64,000 bases of DNA from Thermoanaerobaculia bacterium (GCA_963666565.1 OY762911.1:2880001-2944000); one strand, 5' to 3'. Shown: positions 15,597 to 63,215, numbered from the stretch's first letter. The notes: a model not told the origin generated them from the letters alone. Numbers and translations are program-made.

Positions 15597-15599
15597 CCG

Positions 15600-16781: not shown

Positions 16782-17395
16782 CCGACATCGAGGTCTACAT
16801 GGAAGGCGGAGGCCGCACCGCCAGTTCGAGGGCGCTGCTCCGTGAAGGGGCGGAGGAGTTTCTTGGGGAACTTCGATCCGCTGCGCGAAGCCGGGGCCTC
16901 GAACTGAGGATCGTCTGCTGCGGCGGGCGAGGCGAGGCACGAGCCGACTTCGTCGAGGCAAGGAGCGAGGGGCGGTTCGCGGCGCTCCTGCTAGTGGACT
17001 CGGAGAAGCCGGTCGAGGGCGATCCCAGAACCCACCTCGTCACTCACGACGGCTGGGGGGATCTGGAACCGGCGTCCGAGAGCGAGATTCACCTAATGGT
17101 GCAGGTGATGGAGACCTGGCTCGTCGCCGATCCTCAGGCGCTCGCGAGGCACTATGGACCTGCCTTTCGCACGGACCTTCTGCCGGCGGACCAGGACTTG
17201 GAGACGGTAGAGAAGGAGACGGTGCTCGCGACCCTCGAAGAGGCTACTGCACCGACGTCGGAGGGCCGCTACCACAAGATCCACCATGCCAGACGGCTCC
17301 TCGGCCTGATCGACTCGGAGAGGGTCCAAGCGCGCTGCCCGCATTGCAAGCGGCTCTTCGAGATGCTGACGGCCTTGATCGAGGAGGCGGCCTGA
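16778..17395 (+). CDS. DUF4276-like (TOPRIM-related) partner of the ATPase
   Basis: IEVYMEGGG, CGGR, LLVDSE, MVQVMETWLVAD, YHKIHH; GTGA overlap with the ATPase stop. Confidence 0.75.
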   Translation: MTDIEVYMEGGGRTASSRALLREGAEEFLGELRSAARSRGLELRIVCCGGRGEARADFVEARSEGRFAALLLVDSEKPVEGDPRTHLVTHDGWGDLEPASESEIHLMVQVMETWLVADPQALARHYGPAFRTDLLPADQDLETVEKETVLATLEEATAPTSEGRYHKIHHARRLLGLIDSERVQARCPHCKRLFEMLTALIEEAA

Positions 17396-17396
17396 G

Positions 17397-20300
17397 ATGA
17401 CCGGAGCCCTAACGCCCGACCTCCGCAAGCAGTTGGAGAAGGCCGTCCGCTCCGCGCGCGCCGAAGGCGAGGCCGGCACTCGCGCTGCGCTGCGGGCGCT
17501 CGCGGTGGACGGCGCCCGGCCGCACGAGTCGATGTCCGCCGACGAGCGCAAGCTGCGGCGGCGGCTTCGCGCCCACGGCCGGCAGTTGGGCGACGTACGG
17601 GACCGGGAGAGCGGAGCGCAGGAGATCGGGCGGCTCGTCCACGAGGTCGCCTACGAGCACTGGCACCGGATGCTGTTCGCTCGGTTCCTGGCGGAGAACG
17701 GGTTGCTGGTCGAGCCCCGGTCCCGGGTTTCGGTATCGCTGGACGAGTGCGCTGAACTGGCGCGCGAAGCGGGCGCCACGGACGGCTGGCAGGTCGCCGA
17801 GAGGTTCGCTGCCGAGATGTTGCCCCGGATCTTCCGGCCAGACGACCCGGCCCTCGCGGTGACGCTGGCGCCGGAGACGCGGCAGAGGTTGGAGCGGCTG
17901 GTGGAAGATCTGCCAGACAGCGTGTTCACGGCGAGCGACGCGCTTGGCTGGACGTACCAGTTCTGGCAGGCGGACCGGAAGGAGGAGGTAAACCAGTCGG
18001 GCGCGAAGATCGGCGCGGACGAACTTCCCGCGGTGACGCAGTTGTTCACCGAGAACTACATGGTCCAGTTTCTGTTCCACAACACCATCGGCGCGTGGCG
18101 GGCCGGCAAGCACCTGGAGCAGCGGCCCGAACTGGCCGAGCGTGCCGCGAGCGAAGGGGAACTCGGGGCCGCCGTGCACATCGAACCGCGAGGCGGCCTC
18201 GACGGCTACGACTTCGACTACCTGCGGTTCGTCCGCGAACCGGCCGGCGACGACGGCGAGGATGTGGCCCGGACCTCGACTGGACCTTGGCGGCCAGCCG
18301 GCGGTGCCTTCCGCCGCTGGCCCGACCGGGCGGCGGACCTTCGGGTGCTGGACCCATGCTGCGGAAGCGGCCACTTCCTCATCGAGGGCTTGGAACTCCT
18401 GGTGCGGCTGCGCATGGAGGAGGAGGGCCTCGGGGTCGAGCACGCCGTCGGGGCCGTGTTGAGGGACAACCTGTTCGGACTGGAGATCGACCAGCGCTGC
18501 ACGCAGATCGCGGCTTTCAATCTTGCACTGGCCGCGTGGAAGATGGTGGGCCGCCCGATCGACTTGCCGCCGCCACGGATTGCCTGCTCCGGTCTCGCCG
18601 TGAGCGCTTCGAAGGACGACTGGGTGAGGCTTGCCGAGGGCGATCAACGTCTGGAAGGCACGCTCGACCGGCTCCACGACCTCTTCAAGCAGGGGCCCAT
18701 TCTCGGTTCGTTGATCGACCCGGCGGGGGTCGGCGAGGAACTGTTCCAGGCCGACTTCGCGACGGCGGAGCGCGCTCTGAGCCGGGCGGTCGCCCAGGAA
18801 GACGCCGGCGAGGAAGAGCGGGAGCGCGCGGTGGCGGCGCAGGGGATGTCGCGCGCCGCCGGACTGCTGGCCGGCGAGTACGACCTCGTGATCACCAACG
18901 TGCCCTATCTGGCGCGTCGCAAGCAAGCCGCGAGCCTGCAGGACTTCGCGCTCAAGAGTCACCCGGACGCTAAGGCCGACTTGGCGACCATTTTCGTGTC
19001 GAGGATTCTCCGGTGGCTCGGGACCGGCGGCGTTCAGGCGGTCGTCGCGCCGCAGAACTGGCTGTTTTTGACCAGCTATAGGAAGCTGCGCGAGCGGCTG
19101 CTCGCCGAACGGACGTGGCGATTCGTGGCGCGGCTGGGACCCGGCGCGTTCGAGACGATAGGCGGGCACGTCGTGAACGTCGCCATGGCCGTGCTGTCGG
19201 CCAAGAGGCCGGACGAAAACTGGCGCATGGCCGGCATCGACGTGTCGGCACCCCGCGGCGAGAAGCCGATTCCGGCGCGGAAGAAGGCGGAGTTGCTGCG
19301 GACTCGTGGGAGAAAGCCGGTCTCACAACTTCCGCAGGCTCGGCAGCGACGCAATCCAGATGCCGTGGTCAGGCTACTCGACTACGGAGAAGCGGTTCAG
19401 GTTCTTCTATCTGAGCATGCTCAGGGTCTTGCCGGCATACTGAACGGCGATTCTCTCCGTTTTCGTCGCATGGTGTGGGAGTTCCATCCCGTTCCGCCGG
19501 AGTGGGTCTTGCAGCAGACAAGCGTCGACGAACCGAGCTTCTTTGGCGGACATTCAGGAGTCATCTACTTCGATGAGGAGAACGGCCATCTCCGCGAGGA
19601 TGCTCTCGTTCGACGGGAGAGGCTTCACGACTCGGACCGCCGTGGCAACGCGGCATGGGGTCGGAACGGAATCGGCATCAGCCAGATGACGACGTTGCCT
19701 GCGACGCTGTACTCGGGGGCCAAGTTCGACTCCAACGTGGCGGTCATTCTCCCTAGAGAGGGGGCACTCGTTGAGTCAATCTGGTGCTACTGCTCCGCTC
19801 CCGAGTACGCGCGGGCCGTGCGGGAGATCGACCAAAAGCTGAATGTAACCAACGCCACGTTGGTGAAGGTTCCATTCGATCGAGGTCACTGGAGGAAGGT
19901 CGCCGCCGCCCGGTACCCCAACGGCCTCCCCGAGCCGTTCTCCGACGACCCGACTCAATGGCTTTTCCACGGCCACCCGTGCGGCTCGGTGGTCTGGGAC
20001 GAGGAGACGAAGTGGACCGCCCACGGTCCGCTCCGTGCAGACGCTTCCGTGCTCCACGTCGCCGTCGCGCGGCTCCTCGGCTACCGCTGGCCAGCGGAGC
20101 TCGACCCGGACATGCGGCTGGCGGCAGAGTCCCGAGAATGGGTCGAGCGGTGCCGGGAACTGCACCACTTCGCCGACGAGGACGGCATCGTCTGCCTTCG
20201 GGCAGCGGCTGGCGAGCTGCCGGCGGCCGACCGGCTGCGCTCCCTGCTCGCGGCCTCCTACGGCGAGGCGTGGTCCGACGGGAAGGAGGGCCAGCTTCTT

Positions 20301-21035
20301 GGTGCGGCCGGAAACGGCAAACGGCCGCCCAGGTCTCTGGACGAGTGGCTCCGCGACCGGTTCTTCGCCGAGCACTGCAGGCTGTTCCACAACCGGCCCT
20401 TCGTCTGGCACGTCTGGGACGGCCTCAAGAACGGCTTCCACGCGTTGGTGAACTGCCATCGCCTGTGCGGGCCGGATGGCGAAGGCCGGCGAACGCTGGA
20501 AGCGCTCGCGTACCGGCATCTGGGCGAGTGGATAGCTCGTCAGCGCGCGGCGCAGGGTCAGGATCGGGAGGGGGCGGACGCCCGGCTCGCCGCCGCCCTG
20601 GACCTTCAGCGGCAGTTGGAACTCATCCTGAAGGGTGAACCGCCTTACGACCTCTTCATCCGCTGGCGCCCGCTCCACGAGCAGCCGGTCGGCTGGGCGC
20701 CGAACCTCGACGACGGCGTGAGGCTCAACATCCGCCCCTTCATGCGGGCGGAACTCCAGTCCGGCGGCCGCAAGGGCGCCGGCATCCTCCGCGTCAGGCC
20801 GAACATCACCTGGAAGAAGGACCGCGGCAAGGAACCAGGGAGCCTTCGCCCTAGGGATGACTTCCCCTGGTTCTACTCCTCCGTTGGCCAAGGTACCGAG
20901 GTAGACCGCACGGACTACGCGGCGTCGCTGGAGGCGGATTTTGATGGCAACCGCTGGAACGACCTTCACTACTCACGGGCCGTCAAGGAGGCTGCCCGGA
21001 CGCGTGGACGGAGCGAGACGAGGGCGTCGGCGTGA
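17397..21035 (+). CDS. pglX: BREX DNA adenine methyltransferase PglX (BrxX)
   Basis: PAVTQLFTE.YMV, VLDPCCGSGHF (SAM motif), LFGLEID, VITNVPY (NPPY-like), HNRPFVWH, PNLDDGVRLNIRP. Confidence 0.92.
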   Translation: MTGALTPDLRKQLEKAVRSARAEGEAGTRAALRALAVDGARPHESMSADERKLRRRLRAHGRQLGDVRDRESGAQEIGRLVHEVAYEHWHRMLFARFLAENGLLVEPRSRVSVSLDECAELAREAGATDGWQVAERFAAEMLPRIFRPDDPALAVTLAPETRQRLERLVEDLPDSVFTASDALGWTYQFWQADRKEEVNQSGAKIGADELPAVTQLFTENYMVQFLFHNTIGAWRAGKHLEQRPELAERAASEGELGAAVHIEPRGGLDGYDFDYLRFVREPAGDDGEDVARTSTGPWRPAGGAFRRWPDRAADLRVLDPCCGSGHFLIEGLELLVRLRMEEEGLGVEHAVGAVLRDNLFGLEIDQRCTQIAAFNLALAAWKMVGRPIDLPPPRIACSGLAVSASKDDWVRLAEGDQRLEGTLDRLHDLFKQGPILGSLIDPAGVGEELFQADFATAERALSRAVAQEDAGEEERERAVAAQGMSRAAGLLAGEYDLVITNVPYLARRKQAASLQDFALKSHPDAKADLATIFVSRILRWLGTGGVQAVVAPQNWLFLTSYRKLRERLLAERTWRFVARLGPGAFETIGGHVVNVAMAVLSAKRPDENWRMAGIDVSAPRGEKPIPARKKAELLRTRGRKPVSQLPQARQRRNPDAVVRLLDYGEAVQVLLSEHAQGLAGILNGDSLRFRRMVWEFHPVPPEWVLQQTSVDEPSFFGGHSGVIYFDEENGHLREDALVRRERLHDSDRRGNAAWGRNGIGISQMTTLPATLYSGAKFDSNVAVILPREGALVESIWCYCSAPEYARAVREIDQKLNVTNATLVKVPFDRGHWRKVAAARYPNGLPEPFSDDPTQWLFHGHPCGSVVWDEETKWTAHGPLRADASVLHVAVARLLGYRWPAELDPDMRLAAESREWVERCRELHHFADEDGIVCLRAAAGELPAADRLRSLLAASYGEAWSDGKEGQLLGAAGNGKRPPRSLDEWLRDRFFAEHCRLFHNRPFVWHVWDGLKNGFHALVNCHRLCGPDGEGRRTLEALAYRHLGEWIARQRAAQGQDREGADARLAAALDLQRQLELILKGEPPYDLFIRWRPLHEQPVGWAPNLDDGVRLNIRPFMRAELQSGGRKGAGILRVRPNITWKKDRGKEPGSLRPRDDFPWFYSSVGQGTEVDRTDYAASLEADFDGNRWNDLHYSRAVKEAARTRGRSETRASA

Positions 21036-32427: not shown

Positions 32428-33284
32428 AGCTGATGTCTCTGCTGCGCGACGGCCGGTCCGCGATCGGCGTGCTGGCCGGCGACGAGACGGCGGTCGACCT
32501 GAGCGTCGCCGCGCCGGACCTGCCGCGCGGCATGTGCCGGTTCCTGGCTGCCGGCCAGGAGGCGATGGAGGCGGCCCGCGCCGCCGTCGACTCCGGCGCC
32601 GGCCGCGTGCCGCTCGCCGATCAGACGTTGCTGGCGCCGGTGCCGCGGCCGCGCAAGTTCTTCGCCATCGGCCTGAACTACGCCGACCACGCGGCCGAGA
32701 CCGGGCAGGAGCTCCCGAAGTTCCCGACCGTGTTCAACAAGCAGGTCACGTGCGTCAACCGGCCGGGCGGCGACATCCACGTCCCGCGGGCGTCCTCGGC
32801 CGTCGACTACGAGGGTGAGTTCGCCTTCGTCGTCGGCCGCAGGTGCCGGGGCGTCGTCGCCGAGGACGCGGCGGCCGCCATCGCCGGCTACACGATCGTC
32901 AACGACGTCTCGGTCCGCGACTGGCAGCGGCGCTCGCCGACGATGATCCTCGGCAAGGGCTGGGACACCCACGGTCCGATGGGGCCGTATCTCGTCACCG
33001 CCGACGAGATCGCGGATCCGGACGCGCTCGGCATCCGCACCTGGGTCAACGGCGAGTTGCGGCAGGACTCGAACACGCGGGAACTCGTCTTCGACTGCCG
33101 GAAGCTGGTCGAGACGATCTCGACCATGTGTACGCTCGAACCGGGCGACGTCGTCAGCACCGGCACGCCGGCCGGAGTGGGCGCCGCCTACGATCCGCCG
33201 AAGTTCCTGGTCCCCGGGGACACGGTGCGGATCGAAATCGACGGACTGGGAACGCTCGAGAACCCGGTCGTCGCCGAGCCGTAG
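32424..33284 (+). CDS. Fumarylacetoacetate hydrolase family protein
   Basis: IGLNYADH, DYEGE, NDVSVRD, GKGWDT.GP, GDVVSTGTPAGVG. Confidence 0.92.
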   Translation: MKLMSLLRDGRSAIGVLAGDETAVDLSVAAPDLPRGMCRFLAAGQEAMEAARAAVDSGAGRVPLADQTLLAPVPRPRKFFAIGLNYADHAAETGQELPKFPTVFNKQVTCVNRPGGDIHVPRASSAVDYEGEFAFVVGRRCRGVVAEDAAAAIAGYTIVNDVSVRDWQRRSPTMILGKGWDTHGPMGPYLVTADEIADPDALGIRTWVNGELRQDSNTRELVFDCRKLVETISTMCTLEPGDVVSTGTPAGVGAAYDPPKFLVPGDTVRIEIDGLGTLENPVVAEP

Positions 33285-33291
33285 CCGCCCG

Positions 33292-33434
33292 CTGGGTGCG
33301 CGGGTCTTCCGACCCGCATGCCGCCGAAGGCGGCGGGAGCATCGTCGCCGGCCTTTGGCCGGCGGCCTTGTTGTCCGGGCTGCGCCGCTCCGCGGCTTTC
33401 GCCCGATTGCGGGTCAGAAGACCCGCGCACCCGG
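33292..33434. repeat. REPIN-like element: CTGGGTGCGCGGGTCTTCCGACCCGC and its inverted copy around a ~90-bp core
   Basis: Both terminal REP-like hairpins are visible; lies between convergent genes. Confidence 0.88.
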
Positions 33435-33441
33435 CGGGAGG

Positions 33442-36400
33442 TCAGCCGCGGCCGCGGCCGACGGCGATGCGCACTTCCAGGTCGGGCCGCCTGGACCGCA
33501 GTTCGACCTGGATGGACTGGACCTCGGACTCGGTGAGCGGCTCCGCGGTCGAGTATCCGAGCATGTACTGGCTGCGGAGCTCCTCGCCGATGTGGTCGTA
33601 GGCCCAGATCACGGCGTCCATGCTGCCGACGTAGTACACCCGGCCGCCGCTCGCCTTGGAGATCGCCTCCATGTCGAGCTTCCTTGGTCCGCGTCCGAAC
33701 GCATCCTCGCCAAGGATCATGTTGATGACGTAGACCGGCACTCCCGAGTTCTCCGCGGTCTTGAAGGTCCGCCGGTAGCTGGCCTGGCTGCCGAAGTCGT
33801 CGCCGTCGGTCAGCACGACGAGCGCGCGGCGGCCCTGGTCGCGGGCGAGATGGACGAGACCGAACTCGATCGCGTCGTAGAGGGCCGTGTGGCCGTCCGC
33901 CCGCATGTCCTTCAAGCTGCCGATCAGGTCCCGGACCCGGCTCGTCGTGTCCGAGATGAGGCGCGGCCGCGTGTCGAAGTCCACGAGAAACGCCTGGTCG
34001 ATCTTCGTCAGAACGTTGCCCAGGAAGCGCGCGGCCGCCCGGCGCGTGTCGGCCATCAGCGGGGCCATGCTCTGGGAGCTGTCCACCGCCAGTCCCAGGA
34101 CCAGGGGCACGTCCTCGGCGATCGCGAAGCGCTCGATCGGGATCTCCCGGCGGCCCGCCCGCAGCACGAAGTCCTCCCGGGTCAGGGTCTTGATCGGTTT
34201 GCCCTGCTCGTCGTTGACGACGACGTACACCTCGACGAGGTTGACGGTCGTCTCGGCGATGGGGTTCTCGGAGGAGAGGAACTCCACATCCTCGACCATC
34301 GTGCCGTCGTCGAAATGGAAGGCGACGCGGGCGAAGTCGGCGCCGGGCATGGCCGGTCCCGGCAGGACGGTTCGGAACGGGGGCCGGGTCATCGTCGCCG
34401 TCAGCCGGTCGTTGCGGTAGAACTCGACCCGGTCGAGGCGCCTGCCTCCCGCCAGTTCCACCTGGGCCTCGATGGCGTAGCTCTCGCCCGCCCGGGCTTC
34501 GACCGACGCGATGCCGACGTCGGTTCTCGCCTGGCGCTGGTTGATCGTCAGTTCGTCCTCGCTCAGCCACCGGTCCGAACGGTCGTAGGCGACGACCCGA
34601 ACGGTGCGGGGCACGGCCTCCGGTCCCAGGTCGATTCTCGTCTCGAACGGCTTCCTGCGGTCGTCGAACACGAGTTCGTCGTCGAGGTAGAACTCGACCC
34701 GCCGGACGATCGTGCTGGTCGCGATCGTGCCGAAGGACCTCTTGCCGCTCAGGCCGGACCGCTGGCCGCGCGGCGGCAGGAGGCGCACCAGGCTCGCCAC
34801 CGGCGCCGCGTCGCCCAGGTCGGGCGGGGGAGGGTCGGCGGCCCAGCCGGAGCGCCGTGCGGCGGCCTTCGCCGCGGCGAGAATCTCCGCTTCGGTCGGT
34901 TCGCCCGCGCCCGGCGCGAGCAGTTCGGGATCGCCGCGGTCGTCCAGGGGATTCGAGCCGGGCTCCAGGAAGGTCGCCGCCCACCGGTCGTTCCGCAGGT
35001 CCTCGACCATCAGGACGAGTTCGTCGATGGCCGTCGGCAGGTCGAAGAGGGCGCGGAAGCGCCAGGCGCCCCCGTCGAGGTCGCCGCCGGCGCCCGAGCG
35101 ATGGAGCAGGAAGGGCGGCGTGTCCAGGCCCCGGCCGTAGACCGTTGCCCTGAGGGCGGCGCTCGACGGCGGAGGACGGCTGCCGATCGTGGCGAGGCCG
35201 TCGAGCGTGACCAGTTCCGCGGCCGCGCCGTCGGCGGTGGTCTGGATCCCCTGAGGCAGCAGGACGCTGCGAATCGTCAGGTCGCCGCTGGCGCCGACGG
35301 AGGCATCGTCTCCGTCCCGGTTCAACGCCTCGAGAGCCCGGCTCGCGCGCAGGGCGATCAGGTCGGTCGGCGCGGCGACCGTGGCCCAGCGGCGCGCGGC
35401 CGGCTCGACCGGCGGGCCGCCGCCGGCCGCCGCCAGCCGGACGTTCACGGGATGCGCGGCGCCGTCCGGGGCGCCGCTCGAGCGGTAGCGGATGCGCCAC
35501 GAGGTCCGCAGCCGGTCGATGGCCGCCATCAGTTCTTCCCCGTTGGCCAGCACCCGGCCGCCGCTGGCGTGGGCGGCCTGCCGCGACGACTCCGCGCGCC
35601 CTGGAAGGAGATCGTCGACTTCCTCGGCCGCGGGCGCCGCGTGGACGGGATAGACGCGCCAGCCGAGAGCCGCGACCGCCCGGGCCAGGCTGCGCTGCCG
35701 GCGCTGCTCGGCGACGGCGGCGCGCTCGAACGCCGGGGTCGGTTCGCCCAGGAGGCGCTGGGCGAAGCCGTCGGCGGAGAGGTCCGTGCCGTCGCGCACC
35801 AGGAACAGGACCCGCGGCGGACCCCTCGCCCAGTCGTCGTCCTCGAGCGTTTCGAGCAGGTTGGACCGCTGCCCGCGCAGCGTGTCGAGTTCCAGCAGGA
35901 AGCCTTCCAGCAGATCGGCCGTGCGCAGGCCGTCCGCGTCGGGATCGCCCGAGCGGGCGTCGGCGGCGTCTTGCAGGTCGCGGCGCAGTTCCAGCAGCGC
36001 GCCCGCGCCGCCGGACTGGGCGGCGACGGCGGCCAGCGCGGCGCGGACGTCGACGGCATTGGCAGTGGGTTCGAGCATCCTCTCGACGATCAGGTCGGCG
36101 GCGGCGATCTCGACGTCGCCGAGCGCGACGAGGGCCTCGGCTGCGTCGCCGATGGCGGCCGCCGCCGTCTCCACGCCGTCCGGCGTCGAACCCGGCAGGT
36201 CGAAGTAGACGACGATCCGCCAGCGTTCGGCGACCGGCTCGACCGCGGAGATCTCCCGGAGTTCGCCGTTCTCCAGCACCTCCAGCGCAGCGGCGTCGGG
36301 CGACGCCAGGGAGCCGGCGGGAAGCTGCACGACGATCTGGGACTCGCGGCTCAGGACCTGCGCCGCGCCGGTGCCGGCGGTCGTGCCGGCGAGCGTCGCA

Positions 36401-41296: not shown

Positions 41297-43642
41297 TCAA
41301 TCCAGATAGGCGAACTCGTTCAGATTCAACAGCAGGAGGGAGTAGCTGGCGAACGCGGCGGAGGAGTCGAAGCCCTCCTCCCGCCGCAGCTCCTCGATCA
41401 GGCCGACGCCGCGGGCCACTTCGACCGGGCGCGCCCGCCGGGCCAGCACGGCCTCGAGCGCGCCGGAGACCCGGTCTTCCAGCGCGCCCCCGGCGCCGTC
41501 GACGCTCGCCGCCAGCGCCGCCGCCTGTTCGCTCATGAACTCGCCGTTCAGCATCATCAGCGCCTGGGTCGGCTGGGTCGTCGTGAAGCGAACCGGGCAG
41601 GTCGAGTCCGTGTCGGCCATGTCGAGACTCTCGAGCAGCGGATGGAGCAGCGACCGCTTGACGTGGATGTAGACGCTGCGCCGGGATGCCTGCTCCGTCG
41701 TCGCTTCGCCCCAGGCCGCGTCGGGACGCGAGGCGGTCGCCAGAACCTCTTCCGGCATCGGCGGATAGACGCTGGGGCCGCCGAGTTCCAGGTTGAGCCG
41801 GCCGCTCGCGGCGAGGACGGAGTCCCGGATCTCTTCGGCGGTGAGCCGCCTCATGTTGAAGCGGCTGAACAGGTCGTTGCCGGGATCGGCTTCGAGCGCT
41901 CCGTCGGGCGGGCGCGAGGACATCCGGTAGGCCCGGCTGGTCATCATCAGCCGGTGCATCGACTTGAGACTCCAGTCGCGCTCCGTGAACTCGGTCGCCA
42001 GCCAGTCGAGCAGATCGGGATGGGTGGCCGGTTCGCCGAAGCGGCCCAGGTCGTTCGGCGTCGGCGACAGGCCGCGGCCGAAGTGGTATTGCCAGAGCCG
42101 GTTCGCCATCACCCGGGAGGTGCGCAGGTTGCCCTTGTCGGCGATCCACCGGGCCAGGGCGTGGCGGCGGCCGGTCGTGGGGGAGTCGGCCGCGGCCGGT
42201 TCGAGCCCGGGGTCGCCGTCGCCGAGGATGAGCGGGAAGCCGGGCTCGACCCGTTCGGCCGGCGCGTGCGGGTTGCCGCGAATGAGGACGTGGGTCGGCG
42301 GCGCTTCCGGGCCGATCTCCTTGACCCGCAGCACCTGGATGAGGTTCGCCGGGCCCCAGTCCGCCGGCAGGCTGGAAACGCCGGCGTCGCCCAGGTTCGC
42401 CGGGATCCAGTCCGTGTAGTTCCTGGGCGTCGGCTGGTTGCCGCCGCCGACCTTGTAGGGAGCGATGCCGCGGAAGAACGACAGCATCCGGTAGTAGTCG
42501 GTCTGCGGGATCGGGTCGCCGCGGTGGTTGTGGCAGCGCGCGCAGCCGATCGACATGCCGAGCATGACGCGGGAGGTCGTGTCGAGCACCGAGTCCAGGT
42601 CGTCGTACTGCGCGAGTTCCGTGTCCGTCGGCTCGTCGTCCCAGATGCCGAGCCGCAGGTAGCCGGTGGCGACGATCGACGCCGTCGTGGGCTCGTCGAG
42701 TTCGTCGCCGGCGAGCTGGTGGGTCAGGAACTCGTCGTAGGGCATGTCCGCGTTCAGGGCGTCGATCACCCAGTCGCGGTAGCGCCACGCGGAGGGCTTC
42801 TTGCGGTCGCGCTCGTAGCCGTCGGTCTCCGCGTAGCGGACGAGGTCGAGCCAGTGCCGGCCCCAGCGCTCGCCGTAGTGGGGCGAGGCCAGCAGGCGGT
42901 CGATCAGGCGTTCCCAGGCGTCGGGACGCTGGTCCCTCTCGAAGGCCTCGACGTCCGCGAGGGTCGGCGGCAGGCCGGTCAGGTCGTAGCTCGCGCGGCG
43001 GATCAGGGTGCGGCGGTCGGCTGCAGGGGGCGGTTCGAGGCCGGCCGCCTCGATGCGGGCGAGCAGGAAGTTGTCGATCGGGTTGAGCGGCCATTCCGCG
43101 TCCGCCACGGCGGGGACGTCCGGGCGCTCCAGCGGTCGCACGGACCACCAGGCCCGGTCGGCGTCGGTGATCTCGTACTCGTCGCCGGCCGGCGCGACCT
43201 CCGTGAGCTCGTCCTCGTCGCCTCCGAACGGGGCGCCGAGCTGGATCCACTGTCGGATCGCGTCGAGATCGGCGTCGGCCAGACGGCCCGAGGGCGGCAT
43301 CTGCAACTGTTCGTCCTCGTACTCGACCGCGTGCAGGAGCAGGCTCAGGACGGGCTCGGAGGTGGAGATGGCCGGTCCCCGTTCGCCGCCGCGGAGCAGT
43401 CCGGCCCTGGTGGTCAGCAGCAGGCCGTTCTCGGCGCGCTCCGGGTCGGAATGGCACATGAAGCAGTTCCGCTCCAGCACGGGCCGGACGTTCTCCTCGA
43501 ACAGCTTGATGCCGTCGGCCGGCGTCTGGGCGGTCTGCGCGCCCGCCGACGCCGCCGTCAGCAGGGCGAGCGCCGCCGCGGCGCCCGACCTGGCGACGGG
43601 CCGCGTCCGCTGCGCCGATGGAGGCATGCTGCGCGCGATCAT
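41297..43642 (-). CDS. PSD1/planctomycete cytochrome c domain protein (DUF1549/DUF1553)
   Basis: CFMCH and CARCH heme motifs, NPIDNF, HYGERWGRHWLDLVRYAET, NRLWQYHFGRGL, HPDLLDWLA, LLNLNEF. Start at 43642 or 43627. Confidence 0.9.
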   Translation of the reverse strand: MIARSMPPSAQRTRPVARSGAAAALALLTAASAGAQTAQTPADGIKLFEENVRPVLERNCFMCHSDPERAENGLLLTTRAGLLRGGERGPAISTSEPVLSLLLHAVEYEDEQLQMPPSGRLADADLDAIRQWIQLGAPFGGDEDELTEVAPAGDEYEITDADRAWWSVRPLERPDVPAVADAEWPLNPIDNFLLARIEAAGLEPPPAADRRTLIRRASYDLTGLPPTLADVEAFERDQRPDAWERLIDRLLASPHYGERWGRHWLDLVRYAETDGYERDRKKPSAWRYRDWVIDALNADMPYDEFLTHQLAGDELDEPTTASIVATGYLRLGIWDDEPTDTELAQYDDLDSVLDTTSRVMLGMSIGCARCHNHRGDPIPQTDYYRMLSFFRGIAPYKVGGGNQPTPRNYTDWIPANLGDAGVSSLPADWGPANLIQVLRVKEIGPEAPPTHVLIRGNPHAPAERVEPGFPLILGDGDPGLEPAAADSPTTGRRHALARWIADKGNLRTSRVMANRLWQYHFGRGLSPTPNDLGRFGEPATHPDLLDWLATEFTERDWSLKSMHRLMMTSRAYRMSSRPPDGALEADPGNDLFSRFNMRRLTAEEIRDSVLAASGRLNLELGGPSVYPPMPEEVLATASRPDAAWGEATTEQASRRSVYIHVKRSLLHPLLESLDMADTDSTCPVRFTTTQPTQALMMLNGEFMSEQAAALAASVDGAGGALEDRVSGALEAVLARRARPVEVARGVGLIEELRREEGFDSSAAFASYSLLLLNLNEFAYLD

Positions 43643-43675
43643 ACCGCGCCCGGAGAACCGCACGGCGTCCCTCCG

Positions 43676-43701
43676 CTGGGTGCGCGGGTCTTCTGACCCG
43701 C
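43676..43701 (+). repeat. Single REP-like copy followed by a partial core
   Basis: CTGGGTGCGCGGGTCTTCTGACCCGC. Confidence 0.85.
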
Positions 43702-43797
43702 CCAAGCGCGGCGCCGCGGAGCGGCGCAGCCCGCCGGCTCCCGAGAAGAACGCGCCGCGCAGCGGCGACCGCTGCGCCGGGTAAGCTCCGGTGCGGT

Positions 43798-44691
43798 TTG
43801 GCCCAGCACAGACACGGCGCTCTGCCTGCGCCGCATGACGCGACCGCGACGCTGCTCCTGAGTTGCGACGACGCGGTCGGCCTCATCGCCTCCGTCACCG
43901 GGTTCGTCAACGAGCACGGGGGCATCATCTGCTCGTCCGAGACCCACCGCGACGAGGAACTCGGCAAGTTCTTCCAGCGCCTGGAGTTCGAGATCGACCG
44001 CTTCGACCTCGACCGGGAAACGATCCAGCCGTCGATCGAATTGACGATCGGGGATCACGTGTCGGTCAGGAGCCACATCGCCTTCTCGGACGAGGAGCAG
44101 CGGGTGGCGGTGCTGGCCTCGAAGCCGGCGCATTGCCTGCACGACCTGCTGTCGCGCTGGCGGCTGGGCGAGTTGCCGGGGCGGCCGGTCTGCGTCATCA
44201 GCAACCACCCGGATCACGCGGCGGAAGCGGAGTACAACGGGCTGCCGTACCACTGCCTGCCGGTGACGCCCGAGACCCGCGGCGAGCAGGAAGGGCGGAT
44301 GATCGAGATTCTGGAGGAGGCGAAGGTCGATCTGATCGTGCTGGCGCGCTACATGCAGATCCTCTCGCCGCGGTTCCTCGATCGCTTCCCGAACCGGATC
44401 ATCAACATCCACCACTCCTTCCTGCCGGCGTTCCCGGGCGGCAGGCCGTACCGGCAGGCCTACGTGCGCGGCGTCAAGGTCGTCGGCGCCACCGCGCACT
44501 ACGCGACCGCCGACCTGGACCAGGGACCGATCATCGAGCAGGACGTCACCCGCGTCAGCCACCGCGACTCGGTGACCACCCTCGCGCGCCGCGGCAAGGA
44601 CCTCGAACGCGTCGTCCTCGCCCGCGCCGTCCAGGCGCACCTGGAGCACCGCGTCCTCGTCGTGGAGAACCGCGCGATCGTCTTCGGCTAG
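43798..44691 (+). CDS. purU: Formyltetrahydrofolate deformylase
   Basis: N-terminal ACT domain, HCLHDLL, VISNH, VLARYMQILS, INIHHSFLPAF.G..PY.QA, GATAHY..DLDQGPIIEQ. Start approximate. Confidence 0.93.
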   Translation: MAQHRHGALPAPHDATATLLLSCDDAVGLIASVTGFVNEHGGIICSSETHRDEELGKFFQRLEFEIDRFDLDRETIQPSIELTIGDHVSVRSHIAFSDEEQRVAVLASKPAHCLHDLLSRWRLGELPGRPVCVISNHPDHAAEAEYNGLPYHCLPVTPETRGEQEGRMIEILEEAKVDLIVLARYMQILSPRFLDRFPNRIINIHHSFLPAFPGGRPYRQAYVRGVKVVGATAHYATADLDQGPIIEQDVTRVSHRDSVTTLARRGKDLERVVLARAVQAHLEHRVLVVENRAIVFG

Positions 44692-44700
44692 CCGGGTGCA

Positions 44701-44928
44701 CTGGGTGCGCGGGTCTTCCGCTGGGTGCGCGGGTCTTCCGACCCGCATGCCGCCGAAGGCGGCGGGAGAAACGTCGCCGGCCTTTGGCCGGCGGCCTTGT
44801 TGTCCGGGCTGCGCCTCGCGCGACTTCTTGTCGACGTGCGCTCGAACTTCTCCTTCGCCATGAGGTTGCTCCTGCTATCTCGCTTCGCGGCTTCGCCAGC
44901 GAGCGGGTCAGAAGACCCGCGCACCCAG
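44701..44928. repeat. REPIN-like element with a 20-bp tandem duplication of its left end and a ~60-bp foreign insert
   Basis: Same arms and core as the 33292 copy, with extra sequence at about 44815-44883. Confidence 0.88.
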
Positions 44929-46764
44929 CTACTGCTCGGCGCAGGCGGCCCGCAACTGTCGGGAGGCTTGGGCGAACGCCGGATTGTCGGCGGCGAAGCG
45001 GCGGCCATCGTCGAGGAGCGCCGTGGCCTCTTCGCAGCGGTCGGTCCGGGCAAGGATGGCGGCGAGGCGGAGCCGCGCCAGCGTGAAGTCGGGGCGAACG
45101 GCCAGAGTGGCGGCGAAAGCGCGGGCGGCTTCTTCCGGGCGCCGAAGGTCGAGCAGGACCATGCCGAGGACGAAGCTGGTCTGGGGTTCCGTCGGGTCGA
45201 GGCGCTGGGCCGTGCGGAGCTCCCGCGCGGCGTCGGCGAGGCGCCGCTCGATGGCGAGGACGCCGCCAAGTTCGGTTCGCAGGCGAGCCTCTTCGGCGGC
45301 GGGGAACCGCGTGGAGCGAAGGCCCCGTTCCAGGCCGGTCCGGGCTTCGCGCAGCCGGTTCTGCTGCCGCAACACGACGCTCAGCGCCTGCAGGGCGGCG
45401 GCGTCCGACGGGGCGGCGGCGACTCGCGCGTTCAGGATGTCCAGGGCCTCGGCCGGCCGGCCGGACGCGGCGAGGGCGGCGGCGCGCCGGGTCGGCGCCT
45501 CGGCGTAGGCGGGATCGAGCGCCAGGACGCGGTCGTAGCGCTCCAGCGCCTGCGTGGGGCGGCCCGCCCGGTCGAGGAGCAGCGCGAGCTGATAGTGGGC
45601 CTGCTTGTAGTCGGGCGCGAGCTCCGTCGCGCGGGTCAGACGCCGGATCGCTTCGTCCGATCGGCCGAGGGTGGCGAGGAGCTGTCCCAACTCGAAGTGC
45701 GCCGGCGCCTGGTCCGGGTGGAGAGCCAGCAGCTCTTCGTAGGCGGCTTCGGCTTCGTCGAACTGGCCGGCGTCGACCTGGGCCAGCGCCAGGTGCTTGC
45801 GCGCCTCCAGGTTCGTCGGATCCGCCTCGATGGCGCGGCCGAATACGGTCGCCGCGGCAGCGAACTCGCCGGCCTGCACCGCGATCAGACCCTGCTGGAC
45901 GAGAGCGGCGCTGCCGGTGGGCAGGTAGGCGAGTTCCCGGACCAGCGGGTCGTCGAAGGGGAAGTCGGTGTGGCTTGCCCGGGCGAGGTGCTCGGCCGCG
46001 CGGTCTTCGTCGCCCAGGCGGCGCCAGGCCATGGCGAGCGCATAGTGTCCGCGGCCCGCGCCGGGCTCGGCGGCGACGGCGCGCTCCAGGTAGTCGGCGG
46101 CGGTCTCGGCGTCGCCGCGGTCGAGTGCGAGTGTCCCGAGTCCGTACAGGGCCGGCGCGAACTCGGGCCGCAGTTCCAGCGCGCGGTTCCACAGGGCGGC
46201 CGCCTCTTCGGGCTGGCCGCGCTCGGCCTCCGATTGGGCGAGGCGCTGGATCGCCGGCACCAGGTCGGGCTCGATCGCCAGCGCGGCGCGGTAGGAGGCG
46301 GCCGCAGCCTCGTGGTCGCCGCGGGTTTCCTCGCCGAAGCCACGGAGGTAGGGCCAGCGATGGTCGGATGCGTCGAGTCGCTGTGCTTCCCGGTAGCAGG
46401 CTTCGGCCGCCTCGAGCGCGGTGAAGGCGTGGCTGTCCAGCAGTTGCACGCCGTGGTAGAGCTTGCCAAGTTCGCCGACCGCGGCCGCCAGTTCGGGGCC
46501 GGCGGCGCCGGCGTCCTCAAGCGAGCGGACCCGGCGTTCCAGGCTGGCGATCTGGCCGCGGACCGCCGGATCGTGGGCTTCGTAGCTGGAGGGGAGCGGC
46601 AGGCGCTCGGCTGCGCCGCAGGCGAGGAGGGGCAGCAGAACGACGTGGATGGCATGGGTCGCCAAGACGGCGCCGACCTTGCGGTCGGCAGGATTTCCCG
46701 GCCGCCTGCGGCGGCAGCGGGTCGGAAGACCCGCGCACCCGGCGCCACGGCGTTGTTGCTTCAT
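44929..46764 (-). CDS. TPR-repeat lipoprotein (partner of the ASPIC/UnbV protein)
   Basis: Lipobox LLLAC-like (LPLLAC), AEACYREA, RWPYLRG, many TPRs, FDDPL; ATGA overlap with the upstream gene. Start uncertain. Confidence 0.8.
   Translation of the reverse strand: MKQQRRGAGCAGLPTRCRRRRPGNPADRKVGAVLATHAIHVVLLPLLACGAAERLPLPSSYEAHDPAVRGQIASLERRVRSLEDAGAAGPELAAAVGELGKLYHGVQLLDSHAFTALEAAEACYREAQRLDASDHRWPYLRGFGEETRGDHEAAAASYRAALAIEPDLVPAIQRLAQSEAERGQPEEAAALWNRALELRPEFAPALYGLGTLALDRGDAETAADYLERAVAAEPGAGRGHYALAMAWRRLGDEDRAAEHLARASHTDFPFDDPLVRELAYLPTGSAALVQQGLIAVQAGEFAAAATVFGRAIEADPTNLEARKHLALAQVDAGQFDEAEAAYEELLALHPDQAPAHFELGQLLATLGRSDEAIRRLTRATELAPDYKQAHYQLALLLDRAGRPTQALERYDRVLALDPAYAEAPTRRAAALAASGRPAEALDILNARVAAAPSDAAALQALSVVLRQQNRLREARTGLERGLRSTRFPAAEEARLRTELGGVLAIERRLADAARELRTAQRLDPTEPQTSFVLGMVLLDLRRPEEAARAFAATLAVRPDFTLARLRLAAILARTDRCEEATALLDDGRRFAADNPAFAQASRQLRAACAEQ
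46717..46742 (-). repeat. REP-like copy inside the 5' end of the TPR gene
   Basis: GCGGGTCGGAAGACCCGCGCACCCGG. Confidence 0.85.
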
Positions 46765-48554
46765 CGTTCGCCTTCGCCCTGCCGGAGCTCGTGGTAGGCG
46801 CCGGGTGGAAGCGCGCCGAAGGACTCTTCGGCGCCGGCTAGCCAGTCGACGCGGATGTCCTCGATGGTGGCGTCGCCGAGGCCGATCAGCACCCGCGGAT
46901 CGCTGGACGAGGCGTAGCTCATCGCCGCGCGGACCCGGCGCGCGAGCGCCCGGCCGTCGGTGAGCCGCACCCGGACCAGGCTGCCGAGGGCGTCCCGGTT
47001 GCCGCCGGCGGTCACGAGCCGGAGGCCGATCCAGCCGTTGTCCTGGCCGACCAGGTTCACCAGCAGCCTCGCCGGTCCGCCGTTGTTCGTGACGAGCACG
47101 TCCGTGTCGCCGTCGTTGTCGACGTCGCCGAATGCGGCGCCGCGGGAGACCTCGTAGGCGGCGAAGACCGGTCCGCCGAGCGCGGAGGCATCCTCGAAGC
47201 GGCCGTCGCCGAGATTGCGGAAGAGCTGGTTCGGTTGGCCGAAGCGGCGCTCGTGTTCGGTGGCCGCGGCCGTGCGCGCGGCGGCCCTGTCGCCCGAGCG
47301 GGCGCGGTCCAGGCGCCGCACGGCGCCGTTCACCGCGAGGAGATCGAGGTCGCCGTCGTTGTCGAAGTCGAACCAGCCGGCGCCGAAGCCGGTCATCGGC
47401 AGGCTGGGCGCGTCCAGGCCCGCGGGAACGCCGGCATCGGCGAACAGGGCGTCGCCTTCGTTCACGTAGAGGGTGCTCGTCTCGCCCGTGATGTGGGTCA
47501 CGTAGAGGTCCTCGTCGCCGTCTCCGTCGAGGTCGCCGGCGTCGACGCCCATGCCCGCCTCCGGTTCGCCCCGGCGGTTGACGGCCGAGCCGCCGAAGAA
47601 CGCGCGGTTCTCGAAGCGGCCGTCGCCGAGGTTCATCCACATCTGGTTCGCCGTGCCGTCGTTGGCCACGTAGAGATCGAGCCGGCCGTCGAGATCCAGA
47701 TCGGCCGGCACGGCGCCGAGGCCGTTGCCGAATTCGGCCGCGAGGCCGGCGCGGTCCGTGGACTCCTCGAAGCGCCCGTTGCCGTCGTTGCGGAACAGGC
47801 GGTCCGGCTCGGCGCGGTAGGTCTTCGGGCTGCAGTAGTCCGGCTCGCCGCTGCCGAAGGTGCAGAGCGTGTGGCTGCCGAGATTGAAGTCGACGTAGTT
47901 GCCGACGAACAGGTCGAGCGCTCCGTCCGCGTCGTAGTCGAAGAACGCGGCGGGAACGCTCCATCGCGGGTCGTCGGCGCGGGCAGCCGCTGTCGCGTCT
48001 TCGAATCGGCCGCCGCCCGCGTTGCGCCAGAGCTGGTTGGGGCCCAGGTTCGTGACGTAGAGGTCAACGTGGCCGTCCCCGTCGAAGTCCCCGGCGGCGA
48101 CGCCCATGCCGTAGCCGGTGGCGTCGATGCCGGACTGCTCCGTTGCATCGACAAAGCGAAGTTCGCCTGTTTCGGCCAGTTCGTTTCGGAACAGGCGGTC
48201 GCGAGCGGGGGAGTCGGCGGCGGCACTCCGGGCGCCCGCGGTGCCCGGGTTCAGCGGGCCGCCTTGCACCAGGTATGCGTCGAGATCGCCGTCGCCGTCG
48301 GCGTCGAACAACGCCGCGCCCGAGCCCATGATCTCGGGCAACAGGAACCGGCCGCCGGCGGCGTTCCGGTGCTGGAAGACCAGGCCGACTTCGGCGGCGC
48401 TCTCTTCAAGGGCCGCCGGCGTCGCCGGCGCGGCAGCGGGCGTGTCCGTACTCACCGGTTCCTCCACGAGGCCGATTCGTGGGTCTTCTGCGCAGTTGAG
48501 GATCCCGGCCGTACAGATCAGGACCGTGACGAGCGGGCGGGGCGTTGGCGGCAT
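46761..48554 (-). CDS. CRTAC1/ASPIC-UnbV family FG-GAP repeat protein
   Basis: PEIMGSGAALFDADGDGDLD, repeated D.D.DG.D motifs, SRGAAFGDVDNDGDTD, SYASSSDPRV.GLG. Confidence 0.9.
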   Translation of the reverse strand: MPPTPRPLVTVLICTAGILNCAEDPRIGLVEEPVSTDTPAAAPATPAALEESAAEVGLVFQHRNAAGGRFLLPEIMGSGAALFDADGDGDLDAYLVQGGPLNPGTAGARSAAADSPARDRLFRNELAETGELRFVDATEQSGIDATGYGMGVAAGDFDGDGHVDLYVTNLGPNQLWRNAGGGRFEDATAAARADDPRWSVPAAFFDYDADGALDLFVGNYVDFNLGSHTLCTFGSGEPDYCSPKTYRAEPDRLFRNDGNGRFEESTDRAGLAAEFGNGLGAVPADLDLDGRLDLYVANDGTANQMWMNLGDGRFENRAFFGGSAVNRRGEPEAGMGVDAGDLDGDGDEDLYVTHITGETSTLYVNEGDALFADAGVPAGLDAPSLPMTGFGAGWFDFDNDGDLDLLAVNGAVRRLDRARSGDRAAARTAAATEHERRFGQPNQLFRNLGDGRFEDASALGGPVFAAYEVSRGAAFGDVDNDGDTDVLVTNNGGPARLLVNLVGQDNGWIGLRLVTAGGNRDALGSLVRVRLTDGRALARRVRAAMSYASSSDPRVLIGLGDATIEDIRVDWLAGAEESFGALPPGAYHELRQGEGER

Positions 48555-60949: not shown

Positions 60950-61324
60950 TCAGCGTTGCGGCTCGCCCGCCAGCGGCACGAGCCGCGAGGCGCGGATTCT
61001 CCGGTCCCGGGTGAGCAGCGGCGCCTTCTCCACGATGCTGGTCGCCGCGATCAACTCGTCGGCCGGGTCGGCCCGGAAGTCGAGTTGGCAACTGGTGTGG
61101 CAGATCGCCGGCGTCAGGGGCCAGATCCGAATCTGGCGCAGGACCCGGCGGACTCTTGGGTCCTCGAGGTCGAACTCGATCCGCCCAAGCTGTGCGAGCT
61201 TGGCGATCTCCCAGAGGACGATCGGCGAGATTCCCCACTCGTTCGCGGCCAGAATCCGGCGTTCGCCGGGACGCAGGGCGTCCTCGAGGGCGTGAATCAG
61301 GATGTGGGTGTCAAGATTCAGCAT
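60950..61324 (-). CDS. vapC: PIN-domain VapC toxin
   Basis: LDTHILI, ISPIVLWEI, DPADELIAAT, LLTRDRRI. Confidence 0.9.
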   Translation of the reverse strand: MLNLDTHILIHALEDALRPGERRILAANEWGISPIVLWEIAKLAQLGRIEFDLEDPRVRRVLRQIRIWPLTPAICHTSCQLDFRADPADELIAATSIVEKAPLLTRDRRIRASRLVPLAGEPQR

Positions 61325-61532
61325 CCCACTTGACGCCGGTGCTCATGATGTCGCCCGTGACGCGGATCTTGCCTCGGAGACTGCCGATCAGGTGCTCCGA
61401 CGTGCGGGCGACCGGGATCAGTTTCGCCACGGGGCGTCCGCGTTTGGTGATGACGATGCCGTCCGGGTCGACCCGATCCAGGATAGCCAGACACTTCTCC
61501 TTGAACTGAGCGGCGGCGATGGTCCGGGTCAT
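61311..61532 (-). CDS. Phd/YefM-family antitoxin
   Basis: MTRTIAAAQFKEKCLAILDRV..IVITKRGRPVAKLIP; overlaps the vapC start. Confidence 0.88.
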   Translation of the reverse strand: MTRTIAAAQFKEKCLAILDRVDPDGIVITKRGRPVAKLIPVARTSEHLIGSLRGKIRVTGDIMSTGVKWDAES

Positions 61533-61693: not shown

Positions 61694-62554
61694 TCAGGCG
61701 GCTTCGTAGTCCCGGTGGTAGTCGTTCTCGAAGTTGACGGGCGAGAGGTACCCGAGGGCCGGGTGGCGACGATGCGGGTTGTACCAGCCCTCGATGTAGC
61801 GGAAGAGTTCCCTCCTTGCCTCGGCATGGTTCCGGAACGTGGTCCGGTCGAGGAGTTCGCACTCAAGGCTGGCGAAGAGGCTCTCGGCCATCGCGTTGTC
61901 GTAGCAGTCTCCGACCGAGCCCATGGAGAGCCGGATCCCGGCCTTGCGGCAGCGCTTCCCGAACTGGAGCGAAGTGTACTGGCTGCCTCGATCGGAGTGA
62001 TGGACGACCCCCTCGCCCGGGCGGCGCTGGGCGACGGCCATGTTCAGGGCGTCCACCACGAGTTCGGCCCGCGGGCGGCCGGCCATCGCCCAGCCGACGA
62101 TCCGGCGGCTGAAGACGTCCAGCACGATGGCCAGGCAGAGAAAGCCGCACAGCGTCGGCACGTACGTGAAGTCGGCCACCCAGAGGCGGTCGGGCGCTTC
62201 GCTCTCGAACTCCCGGTCGACCAGATCCGGCGCCGGGCGAGCGGTCTTGTCGCGGCGCGTCGTCCGCGGCCTCTTGCGGCGGCTTACGCCGGCCAGGTCC
62301 GACTCTCGCATGAGTCTGGCGACGCGCTTGCGGCTCGCCAGGACGCCCTCGTCGGCCAACTGTGCCTGGATCCGGGGAGCGCCGTAGGTGCCCCGGCTGG
62401 CTTCGTGGATCGACCGAACCCGCTCGGACAGGGCGGCGTCCGCCCGGACCCTGGCCGACGGGACTCGCTTGCGCCACGCGTAGTACCCGCTCGTGGAGAC
62501 GCCGAGCACTCGAGCCATCGCAGCGATCCGGAACTCGGCCTGGTACGCCCTCAT
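61694..62554 (-). CDS. IS3 transposase OrfB (DDE integrase core)
   Basis: YGAPRI, WVADFTYV, DVFSRRIVGW, HHSDRGSQY, DNAMAES, WYNPHRRH. Confidence 0.93.
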   Translation of the reverse strand: MRAYQAEFRIAAMARVLGVSTSGYYAWRKRVPSARVRADAALSERVRSIHEASRGTYGAPRIQAQLADEGVLASRKRVARLMRESDLAGVSRRKRPRTTRRDKTARPAPDLVDREFESEAPDRLWVADFTYVPTLCGFLCLAIVLDVFSRRIVGWAMAGRPRAELVVDALNMAVAQRRPGEGVVHHSDRGSQYTSLQFGKRCRKAGIRLSMGSVGDCYDNAMAESLFASLECELLDRTTFRNHAEARRELFRYIEGWYNPHRRHPALGYLSPVNFENDYHRDYEAA

Positions 62555-62859
62555 GAACCCGTAGACCTCTTGGGCTTTGTCTCCCGGGCGAACCAGGCCG
62601 TTGCTCTTGCCAGTATCTCCCGCTCTTCCCGCAGCCGGCGATTCTCGCGGCGCAGACGGCGGAGCTCTTCGCGCTCCGCCGTGGTCAGTCCGTCAGCGCG
62701 GCGGCCTTCGTCCCGATCCGCCTGCGCCGCCCAGTTGCGGATGGACTGCGCTGAAGGCTCGAACTCGCGGGCGAGTTGGTCCGGGCTGCGCCCGGACCGG
62801 ACCAGATCCACCATCTGGCGCCGGTACTCAGCCGGGTACCGGGGTCTTGATCTTGGCAT
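62551..62859 (-). CDS. IS3 transposase OrfA (HTH)
   Basis: YPAEYRRQMV..LAREF..SIRNW, ELRRLRRENRRLREEREIL; ATGA overlap with orfB. Confidence 0.9.
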   Translation of the reverse strand: MPRSRPRYPAEYRRQMVDLVRSGRSPDQLAREFEPSAQSIRNWAAQADRDEGRRADGLTTAEREELRRLRRENRRLREEREILARATAWFARETKPKRSTGS

Positions 62860-63215
62860 CGTGGGTACCTCCTCCTCCAAGGATGTGGTGTCCACGAAAC
62901 CGGGTCAACCTCAGGAAACACCCCCCGCGGACGACGCGCCGGCCCTGGGCACCCCAACGTCTCTGCTTTCGTCCCGCCATCGATCCGCCTTGCCAACGTG
63001 TGCTCTCCACTATTCAACGGGATGCCCGCTGTGTCACGTACGTTGGCAGAGAGGGCGGCTGCGATCGTGCGGGTCATTCGGATGTCCTTGTGGCGGGCTC
63101 AGCGCCTCTTGGACAGACCATGCGATCGGACACTGTTTGTGTCCAGAGGATCGAGCGCGGTGTTTGGGAAGGTGCGAGTGGCTGGTTGCTGGCCAGCGAC
63201 TGGCGTACTCCGTGC

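Follow-up and report, generated by a model that had tools for sequence, protein, structure and literature searches.

A repetitive element in the chromosome of a Thermoanaerobaculia bacterium carries an insert that is an exact patch from two places of the genome's own tuf-rpsJ operon. The best reading of this insert is that it is a repair scar, neither a mobile element nor a gene. We consider it probable that the insert was produced by templated filler synthesis that was primed by microhomology and switched template once, at a broken REPIN later sealed by end joining. The locus lies in a 64-kb stretch of DNA (hereafter the window) that corresponds to C1:2880001-2944000, where C1 is the single contig of a 4.79-Mb genome with 70% G+C. 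Coordinates given below with the prefix C1 are those of the contig, and the features of the locus are collected in Table 1 in window coordinates.

Table 1. Features of the interrupted REPIN, its insert and its surroundings (window coordinates; a dot marks a feature to which no strand is assigned)
Feature	Position	Strand	Basis or remarks
Sister REPIN without insert, empty-site reference	33292..33434	+	alignment, folding
Formyltransferase-domain protein gene (PurU-like), left flank	43618..44691	+	PF00551, E 3e-42
57-codon reading frame (predicted)	44688..44861	-	borrowed tuf ribosome-binding site and ATG, through REPIN, to palindromic GCTAGC stop
REPIN copy carrying the insert	44721..44926	+	two inverted REPs around three internal hairpins
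rpsJ-derived piece, encodes HVDKKSRE	44815..44840	-	= C1:225778-225803, 26/26 nt, E 9e-8
tuf/rpsJ joint microhomology, 6 nt	44835..44840	.	CGTGCG on +, CGCACG in sense
tuf-derived piece	44835..44884	-	= C1:227182-227231, 50/50 nt, E 4e-22
TPR-repeat protein gene, right flank	44929..47964	-	profile/annotation of window

A two-part copy of the tuf-rpsJ operon

Alignment of the focal repeat (44690-44940) with the sister copy (33280-33450) revealed one 66-column insertion, the remainder being collinear. This agrees with the initial annotation, which had noted about 60 extra bp relative to the sister and had read them as the start of tuf running into a fragment of rpsJ. When window positions 44800-44900 were searched against the whole genome with blastn-short, exact matches were returned to both the host's tuf leader and its rpsJ, with E values that exclude a chance match of either donor (Table 1). 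Window positions 44835-44863 also match a second tuf copy (C1:244054-244082, 29/29 nt), in its coding part only. The donor is the rpsJ-adjacent tuf copy, because the insert has the leader unique to that copy.

The tuf donor covers positions -23 to +27: an AGGAG motif, the ATG (44861, minus strand) and codons 1-9, MAKEKFERT, all as originally described. Translation of the source locus bore out the assignment of this peptide to the beginning of EF-Tu and of HVDKKSRE to S10, the rpsJ donor being internal to the S10 ORF (..SPHVDKKSREQ..). At the donor locus, on the minus strand of the contig, the fusA stop codon is followed by a 79-nt spacer, tuf, a 48-nt spacer and rpsJ. The two pieces in the insert have the same orientation and keep the operon order; 1378 bp between them are skipped, and they overlap by the 6 nt at which two points of this unit, more than 1 kb apart, had been proposed to be joined. 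Both donors fall within a 1.45-kb segment of the 4.79-Mb genome and keep strand and operon order, which points to one template molecule copied with a single jump; two independent fragments would not produce such an arrangement.

The joints between the insert and the REPIN share fewer bases: 3-4 nt on the tuf side (GCT at 44882-44884, or CGCT at 44881-44884) and 0-1 nt on the rpsJ side (base 44815, C). Among 200,000 random breakpoint pairs in the donor locus, microhomology of at least 6 nt occurred at a frequency of 0.0038, of at least 4 nt at 0.027 and of at least 3 nt at 0.07. The donors cover all of 44815-44884 and both flanks align to the family consensus; the insert therefore contains nothing untemplated (0 bases).

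The initial annotation had also described 5-bp direct repeats, CTCGC, as bounding the insert. The pentamer does occur at both insert ends (44815-44819 and 44879-44883, a period of 64 nt), but it is not a target-site duplication, because both pentamers belong to the donor pieces and the target has no CTCGC: the uninterrupted site reads GCGC/CGCT (the slash marking the insertion site), both in the sister and in a consensus built from 88 copies. The occurrence of CTCGC at both ends is either chance, for which we roughly estimate a probability of about 0.01-0.03, or a hint of a circular or concatemeric intermediate. Such an intermediate, with its 64-nt period, was rejected as the route of entry, since integration by that homology fails at a target without CTCGC. 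The insert likewise has no target-site duplication, no terminal repeats of its own and no transposase. Insertion of an IS or MITE was rejected as well: the insert consists wholly of two host gene pieces, and the target was not duplicated.

Four public sequencing runs (X1-X4; three samples from one study, one organism) contain this stretch; they may include the source data of the assembly and do not represent independent strains. k-mer contigs from these runs were placed on 44300-45400. A 79-nt contig (44786-44864; X1, depth 28.5) spans the REPIN/rpsJ and rpsJ/tuf joints, and a 73-nt contig (44855-44927; X1-X4, depths 29.4, 8.5, 45.6 and 32.7) spans the tuf/REPIN joint, each with 0 differences from the assembly. 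The initial annotation had asked for reads spanning 44690-44940; these contigs together bridge all three joints and exclude an assembler chimera. Depths over the unique flanks in X1-X4 were about 50, 8.5, 45 and 33. None of the 23 runs listed is an RNA run.

Two minor features of the donor and the insert deserve mention. The two tuf genes are identical over 1188 bp (C1:226015-227202 = 242887-244074) and have different leaders, the second copy being preceded by tRNA-like sequence; this combination looks like the outcome of gene conversion between them. The predicted 57-codon frame that opens at the borrowed start codon is co-oriented with the upstream TPR gene and is probably incidental.

The interrupted REPIN and its relatives

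The focal repeat is a true REPIN by structural definition. Its REP motif lies at 44723-44735 and the complement at 44914-44926 (33294 and 33420, respectively, in the sister), and the inverted REPs, GGGTGCGCGGGTC....GACCCGC, pair into a 24-bp outer stem around three small hairpins. The sister folds with a predicted energy of -63.9 kcal/mol (z -8.76; 0/200 shuffles as good). The focal copy folds with its insert at -72.3 kcal/mol (z -7.05) and retains the outer stem, the insert being positioned in the 5' arm of the third internal hairpin. BLAST identified 142 near-full copies of the 143-bp element in the genome. The REP motif was matched 816 + 749 times at no more than 2 mismatches (about 1,565 matches, some of them probably spurious), and there are 159 adjacent forward/reverse REP pairs.

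The genome has a single match to a RAYT-type Y1 transposase (PF01797, C1:749427-749648, 36 bits against a cut-off of 23). Directly downstream of this gene lie a REP array and a REPIN (C1:749713-749931), with a further REPIN at C1:747108-747245, and the 100-kb bin around it contains 139 REP motifs, the maximum for the genome. Inverted REPs, a long hairpin, many copies and a single RAYT gene flanked by REPs together make the element a REPIN, and in these respects it resembles known REPIN-RAYT systems. It differs from them in carrying host coding sequence, which is absent from the published description of REPINs. The REPIN literature, represented here by Bertels and Rainey (2011, PMC3116915), treats the copying and decay of these elements, and among the papers listed in a search of REPIN-RAYT literature on insertions and hairpins, no title reports a host coding insert in a REPIN. 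RAYT cleavage was considered as the source of a break and, by inspection, set aside as the leading idea: the insertion site is about 30 nt inside the right REP, and the donor boundaries share no motif.

The PurU-like and TPR genes that flank the element are convergent, and between them there is one copy of the 143-bp repeat with an extra half-REP before it. The stop codon of the TPR gene is 2 nt from the end of the REPIN, and the sense orientation of the insert is that of the TPR gene. Best matches of the PurU-like protein showed 83% identity in metagenomes and 77% in the MAG Candidatus Multivorans thiocomprendens (Acidobacteriota); no conspecific contig with this flanking protein was found in metagenomes or named genomes. 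The extra half-REP (44700-44720) places the 20-nt 5' REP half, CTGGGTGCGCGGGTCTTCCG, twice in tandem at 44700-44739, an arrangement also seen at one other locus (C1:2351654-2351686). Same-direction REP arrays of 2-8 units, with a period of 25-36 nt, are common in the genome.

A search of the genome for comparable events returned only the focal one. We took 22-mers occurring exactly twice and chained them, which gave 113 islands of at least 26 nt with unlike flanks. The two focal islands were the only ones linking unique coding DNA to a REP element; the others comprised the tuf duplication, REP-like sequence, local inverted repeats of a second repeat family (see below) and short coding-coding coincidences (this last class inspected in part). 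Captured fragments were also sought in the longer REP pairs and rejected after inspection of all 159 pairs, the class of about 186 bp being a subfamily with an extra (fourth) hairpin module. None of the 88 other copies of 125-150 bp has even one extra base at the insertion site. BLAST of a 45-kb ribosomal-protein region (C1:205000-250000) against the genome disclosed no other captured copy of anything in 213-247 kb, whose outside matches were the focal ones and a few weak, paralogue-like ones.

A search through 41 other genomes of the genus with the 1701-bp tuf-rpsJ locus recovered the native genes and no captured piece; the short additional matches fall on the same parts of the query in many of these genomes and have the appearance of conserved motifs. 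Four congeners judged by sequence and two judged by coordinates have little or nothing at the orthologous intergenic site. The site is occupied by a different repeat in five others, consists of a 37-bp spacer in one and holds about 980 bp of other sequence in another. With orthologous sites empty or otherwise filled, the REPIN and its insert are therefore recent, within the lineage of this species. A 40-mer across the junction had 0 matches in metagenome_contigs and 0 in the species-representative genome_contigs, where the organism's own genome may be left out. Judged from these comparisons, the insertion event appears to be unique, with no second case in this genome or in the 41 congeners.

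Two further observations were made in passing. A REP pair at C1:755905-756178 surrounds about 170 nt of unique coding-looking sequence, which could be an old captured fragment or merely a gene remnant flanked by two REPs. The second abundant repeat family has GGGGAGGGTCCC-type arms that form local inverted repeats about 140 bp apart (for example at C1:1635356-1635532 and 4201959-4202135, and at five loci of related genomes), and in several congeners it fills the intergenic site held here by the REPIN.

Probable templated filler synthesis and competing readings

Joints of 3-4, 6 and 0-1 nt are those expected of microhomology-primed synthesis, a template switch and near-blunt ligation, respectively. 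We infer that one REPIN copy suffered a break, or a stalled and broken 3' end, within its third internal hairpin. One of the 3' ends would have used 3-4 nt to anneal to the fusA-tuf spacer in single-stranded form, and extension by about 46 nt would have carried it as far as tuf codon 9. The extended end may then have slipped and re-annealed in rpsJ via CGCACG, 1378 nt onward on the same molecule, where a further 20 nt would have been added. In the last step the other end would be joined on at 0-1 nt of homology, most likely by the genome's Ku-LigD end-joining system. A mirror-image order of steps on the opposite strand would fit equally well. Synthesis could have run in the sense direction, primed at the tuf leader with the antisense DNA strand as template, or in the antisense direction, primed inside rpsJ with the sense strand (DNA or mRNA) as template. 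The template jumping by a polymerase or reverse transcriptase (RT) put forward in the initial annotation is compatible with these junctions.

The genome encodes Ku (PF02735, 166 bits) and, in one 942-aa frame adjoining ku, a LigD with polymerase (TIGR02778, 244 bits) and ligase (TIGR02779, 249 bits summed) domains. With both present, a route is available that needs no dedicated RT. For SbcD, the best score was 25 bits against a cut-off of 77.65, so that no match above the cut-off is available to account for cleavage of the hairpin. Several observations count against repair of a break: there is a single event and hence no pattern across events, the insertion site is no indel hotspot (0/88 copies), and donor and acceptor are about 2.1 Mb apart on the circular chromosome, a distance not easily reconciled with a DNA template. 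Moreover, we know of no established case in which long templated insertions from a distant locus are a product of bacterial Ku-LigD repair.

As to the template, we lean slightly towards exposed DNA of the heavily transcribed operon, a tentative choice, over mRNA, which we rate lower; the sequence itself is compatible with either. Both weights include fork-type copying, so that together they slightly exceed the weight we give to filler synthesis at a break. The RNA variant is a sub-case of this filler synthesis, differing in its template: the filler would be cDNA of the fusA-tuf-rpsJ mRNA. A 3' DNA end would prime reverse transcription in rpsJ, jump at CGCACG to tuf codon 9 and run to -23, after which the cDNA would be joined via the 3-4-nt homology; the RT activity could be that of DNA polymerase I, of a different repair polymerase or of either defence RT. 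The mRNAs of tuf and of the S10 operon are expected to be among the most abundant, single-stranded and diffusible molecules of the cell. An mRNA donor would need no unwinding and would exist in many copies, in contrast to the lone DNA duplex about 2.1 Mb off. Both pieces lie on one probable transcript, given that the two spacers are short (79 and 48 nt) and that simple scans for promoters and terminators found no terminator-like or promoter-like site in either spacer. Their sense-collinear order also agrees with an RNA template, and would be equally expected for a DNA template. The identity of the donor discriminates weakly between the two, because highly transcribed DNA is also preferentially single-stranded.

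Bacterial Pol I is reported to reverse-transcribe efficiently during RNA-templated repair synthesis (PMC12776460, PMC13646829), and microhomology-mediated end joining in Pseudomonas is reported to involve a group II intron-like RT (10.1101/2022.03.14.484287). Yet the insert bears no RNA-specific hallmark, having neither a tail nor untemplated bases. Its -23 boundary is at microhomology within the fusA-tuf spacer, where there is no promoter-like site and no demonstrated transcript end. A scan of the genome with PF00078 detected two RT-like genes only, both defence-type (one UG6-like, the other a short DRT4-like gene), and no group II intron-like RT. Furthermore, rRNA and tRNA greatly outnumber any mRNA, and neither was the donor. 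We regard an RNA template as possible but on the whole unlikely.

Template switching at a replication fork, of the FoSTeS/MMBIR type, would require no two-ended break: the nascent strand would stall at the hairpin, disengage, use microhomology to copy two short stretches of the tuf-rpsJ region and return. The REPIN has a very stable fold as single-stranded DNA and is therefore a plausible fork barrier. Fork-type switches usually use nearby forks, and here the donor is about 2.1 Mb away; the return joint, with its 0-1 nt of homology, also suits end-joining ligation better than re-priming. We judge this mechanism improbable, despite the serial microhomology joints and short copied segments that are the signature of the model (PMC2621351).

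Capture of a pre-formed double-stranded fragment is a still weaker candidate, and we give it little credence. Under this scenario, tuf-rpsJ DNA already deleted for the 1378 bp, deriving for instance from the debris of a dead sister chromosome or from transferred DNA, would have been ligated into the break by NHEJ, much as linear fragments are captured in an NHEJ-dependent manner at a chromosomal I-SceI break in the Sinorhizobium meliloti experiments of PMC6379672. Two independent rare events would be required, and a deletion removing nearly all of tuf and the start of rpsJ would be a dead-end allele of essential genes. The 3-4 nt of homology at one end suggest annealing rather than ligation of a random fragment, and the absence of the junction 40-mer from both contig collections also speaks against such a molecule. 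Finally, an assembly or sequencing chimera, which might be suspected of an insert in a repeat of about 140 copies where assemblers may err, is exceedingly improbable: the junctions are bridged at single-copy depth, close to that of the flanks, by short-read contigs built independently from four runs, and the joints that skip 66 positions in the read table are explained by three further copies in the genome that match the site over 16 nt on each side. Over 20 nt on each side no copy elsewhere in the genome matches, so an empty allele is a possible further source of such joints.

Known repair systems and the reverse transcriptases of the genome

In eukaryotes, error-prone repair of breaks is well known to leave complex templated insertions behind; in bacteria they are rarely documented as natural events. 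Templated or filler insertions are described for synthesis-dependent microhomology-mediated end joining (Yu and McVey 2010, PMC2943611), a scheme that the junction pattern here matches, and human cells can acquire templated insertions of sequence from distant loci (PMC5110952). The insert described here resembles such eukaryotic fillers in being a short copy of the organism's own genome, with microhomology at its junctions, more than one segment and no target-site duplication. The eukaryotic insertions, however, depend on polymerase theta, LINE-1 or other RTs, whereas here a REPIN in a Ku-LigD bacterium received sequence from a single operon expected to be highly expressed.

For bacteria, the evidence located is experimental: Dupuy, Sauviac and Bruand (2018, PMC6379672) showed that NHEJ can incorporate DNA at chromosomal breaks, the reported products being captured ready-made fragments and additions only a few nucleotides long. 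Both cases involve a bacterium with Ku and LigD and the entry of ectopic or foreign DNA into a break with no requirement for homology. They differ in that a supplied linear cassette was captured whole in the published experiments, whereas ours is a natural event with a 76-nt two-part copy of the cell's own operon. A two-part filler with internal microhomology argues for copying, not for ligation of a ready fragment. G2L4, an RT, also offers a parallel through microhomology-primed synthesis at bacterial break ends, and would link an RT to repair. It is described as joining ends rather than importing distant sequence, and the present genome has no RT of the group II intron-like type.

A search of the literature on bacterial templated insertions and filler DNA (microhomology, LigD, breaks) yielded no natural bacterial case among the papers listed. 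As far as full-text searches show, no fully resolved natural bacterial case in which a REPIN holds a two-part filler from an operon seems to have been published. In a genome encoding Ku and LigD, the locus offers a clean example from nature in which the origin of each base is traced, and it illustrates that such repair can carry a ready-made ribosome-binding site and start codon to a new place. It also supplies a search image, short exact islands tying unique coding DNA to repeats, that a k-mer census could apply to thousands of genomes. A wider census would ask whether donors are enriched for highly expressed genes and whether scars track NHEJ or RT genes; the latter bears on RNA-templated repair in bacteria. 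If the template was indeed RNA, this would imply that a housekeeping polymerase (Pol I or that of LigD) or a defence RT is able to return mRNA sequence to a bacterial chromosome, and the significance of the locus would be high only if this were shown. As a single neutral-looking scar, the insert probably has little consequence for the organism itself.

The RT gene in the window (11157-13790) has RT_UG6 as its best PADLOC match (E 7e-21) and is followed by a nitrilase-like gene (RTasNitrilase, E 5e-35). The initial annotation had called any link between this RT and the insert speculative, and that caution holds: the gene encodes a defence-type, UG6-like RT within a BREX island about 31 kb from the insert, and the two have in common only their residence in one genome. 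The second RT gene (C1:378250-379233) is DRT4-like and encodes 328 aa, compared with 467-542 for the profiles; an ISL3 transposase gene lies directly downstream. From this arrangement, the DRT4-like gene was probably cut short by the IS. The RT gene and the ISL3-family transposase gene together occupy C1:378250-380506 (L013 1051-3306).

The BREX-like island spans window positions 5481-25690 and includes genes for BrxB, an Eco57I/N6-type (PglX-like) methylase (17379-21035), PglZ and BrxL. Its accessory genes encode an HTH + M78 peptidase regulator (RmrA-like; 9649-11157), the UG6-like RT, its nitrilase-like partner (13794-15596), an AAA_21 ATPase (15597-16778) and a DUF4276 protein (16700-17392). 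Elsewhere in the window, an IS3-family transposase pair (HTH_Tnp_1 and rve integrase core; 61697-62904) lies near a PIN-domain gene (60950-61342).
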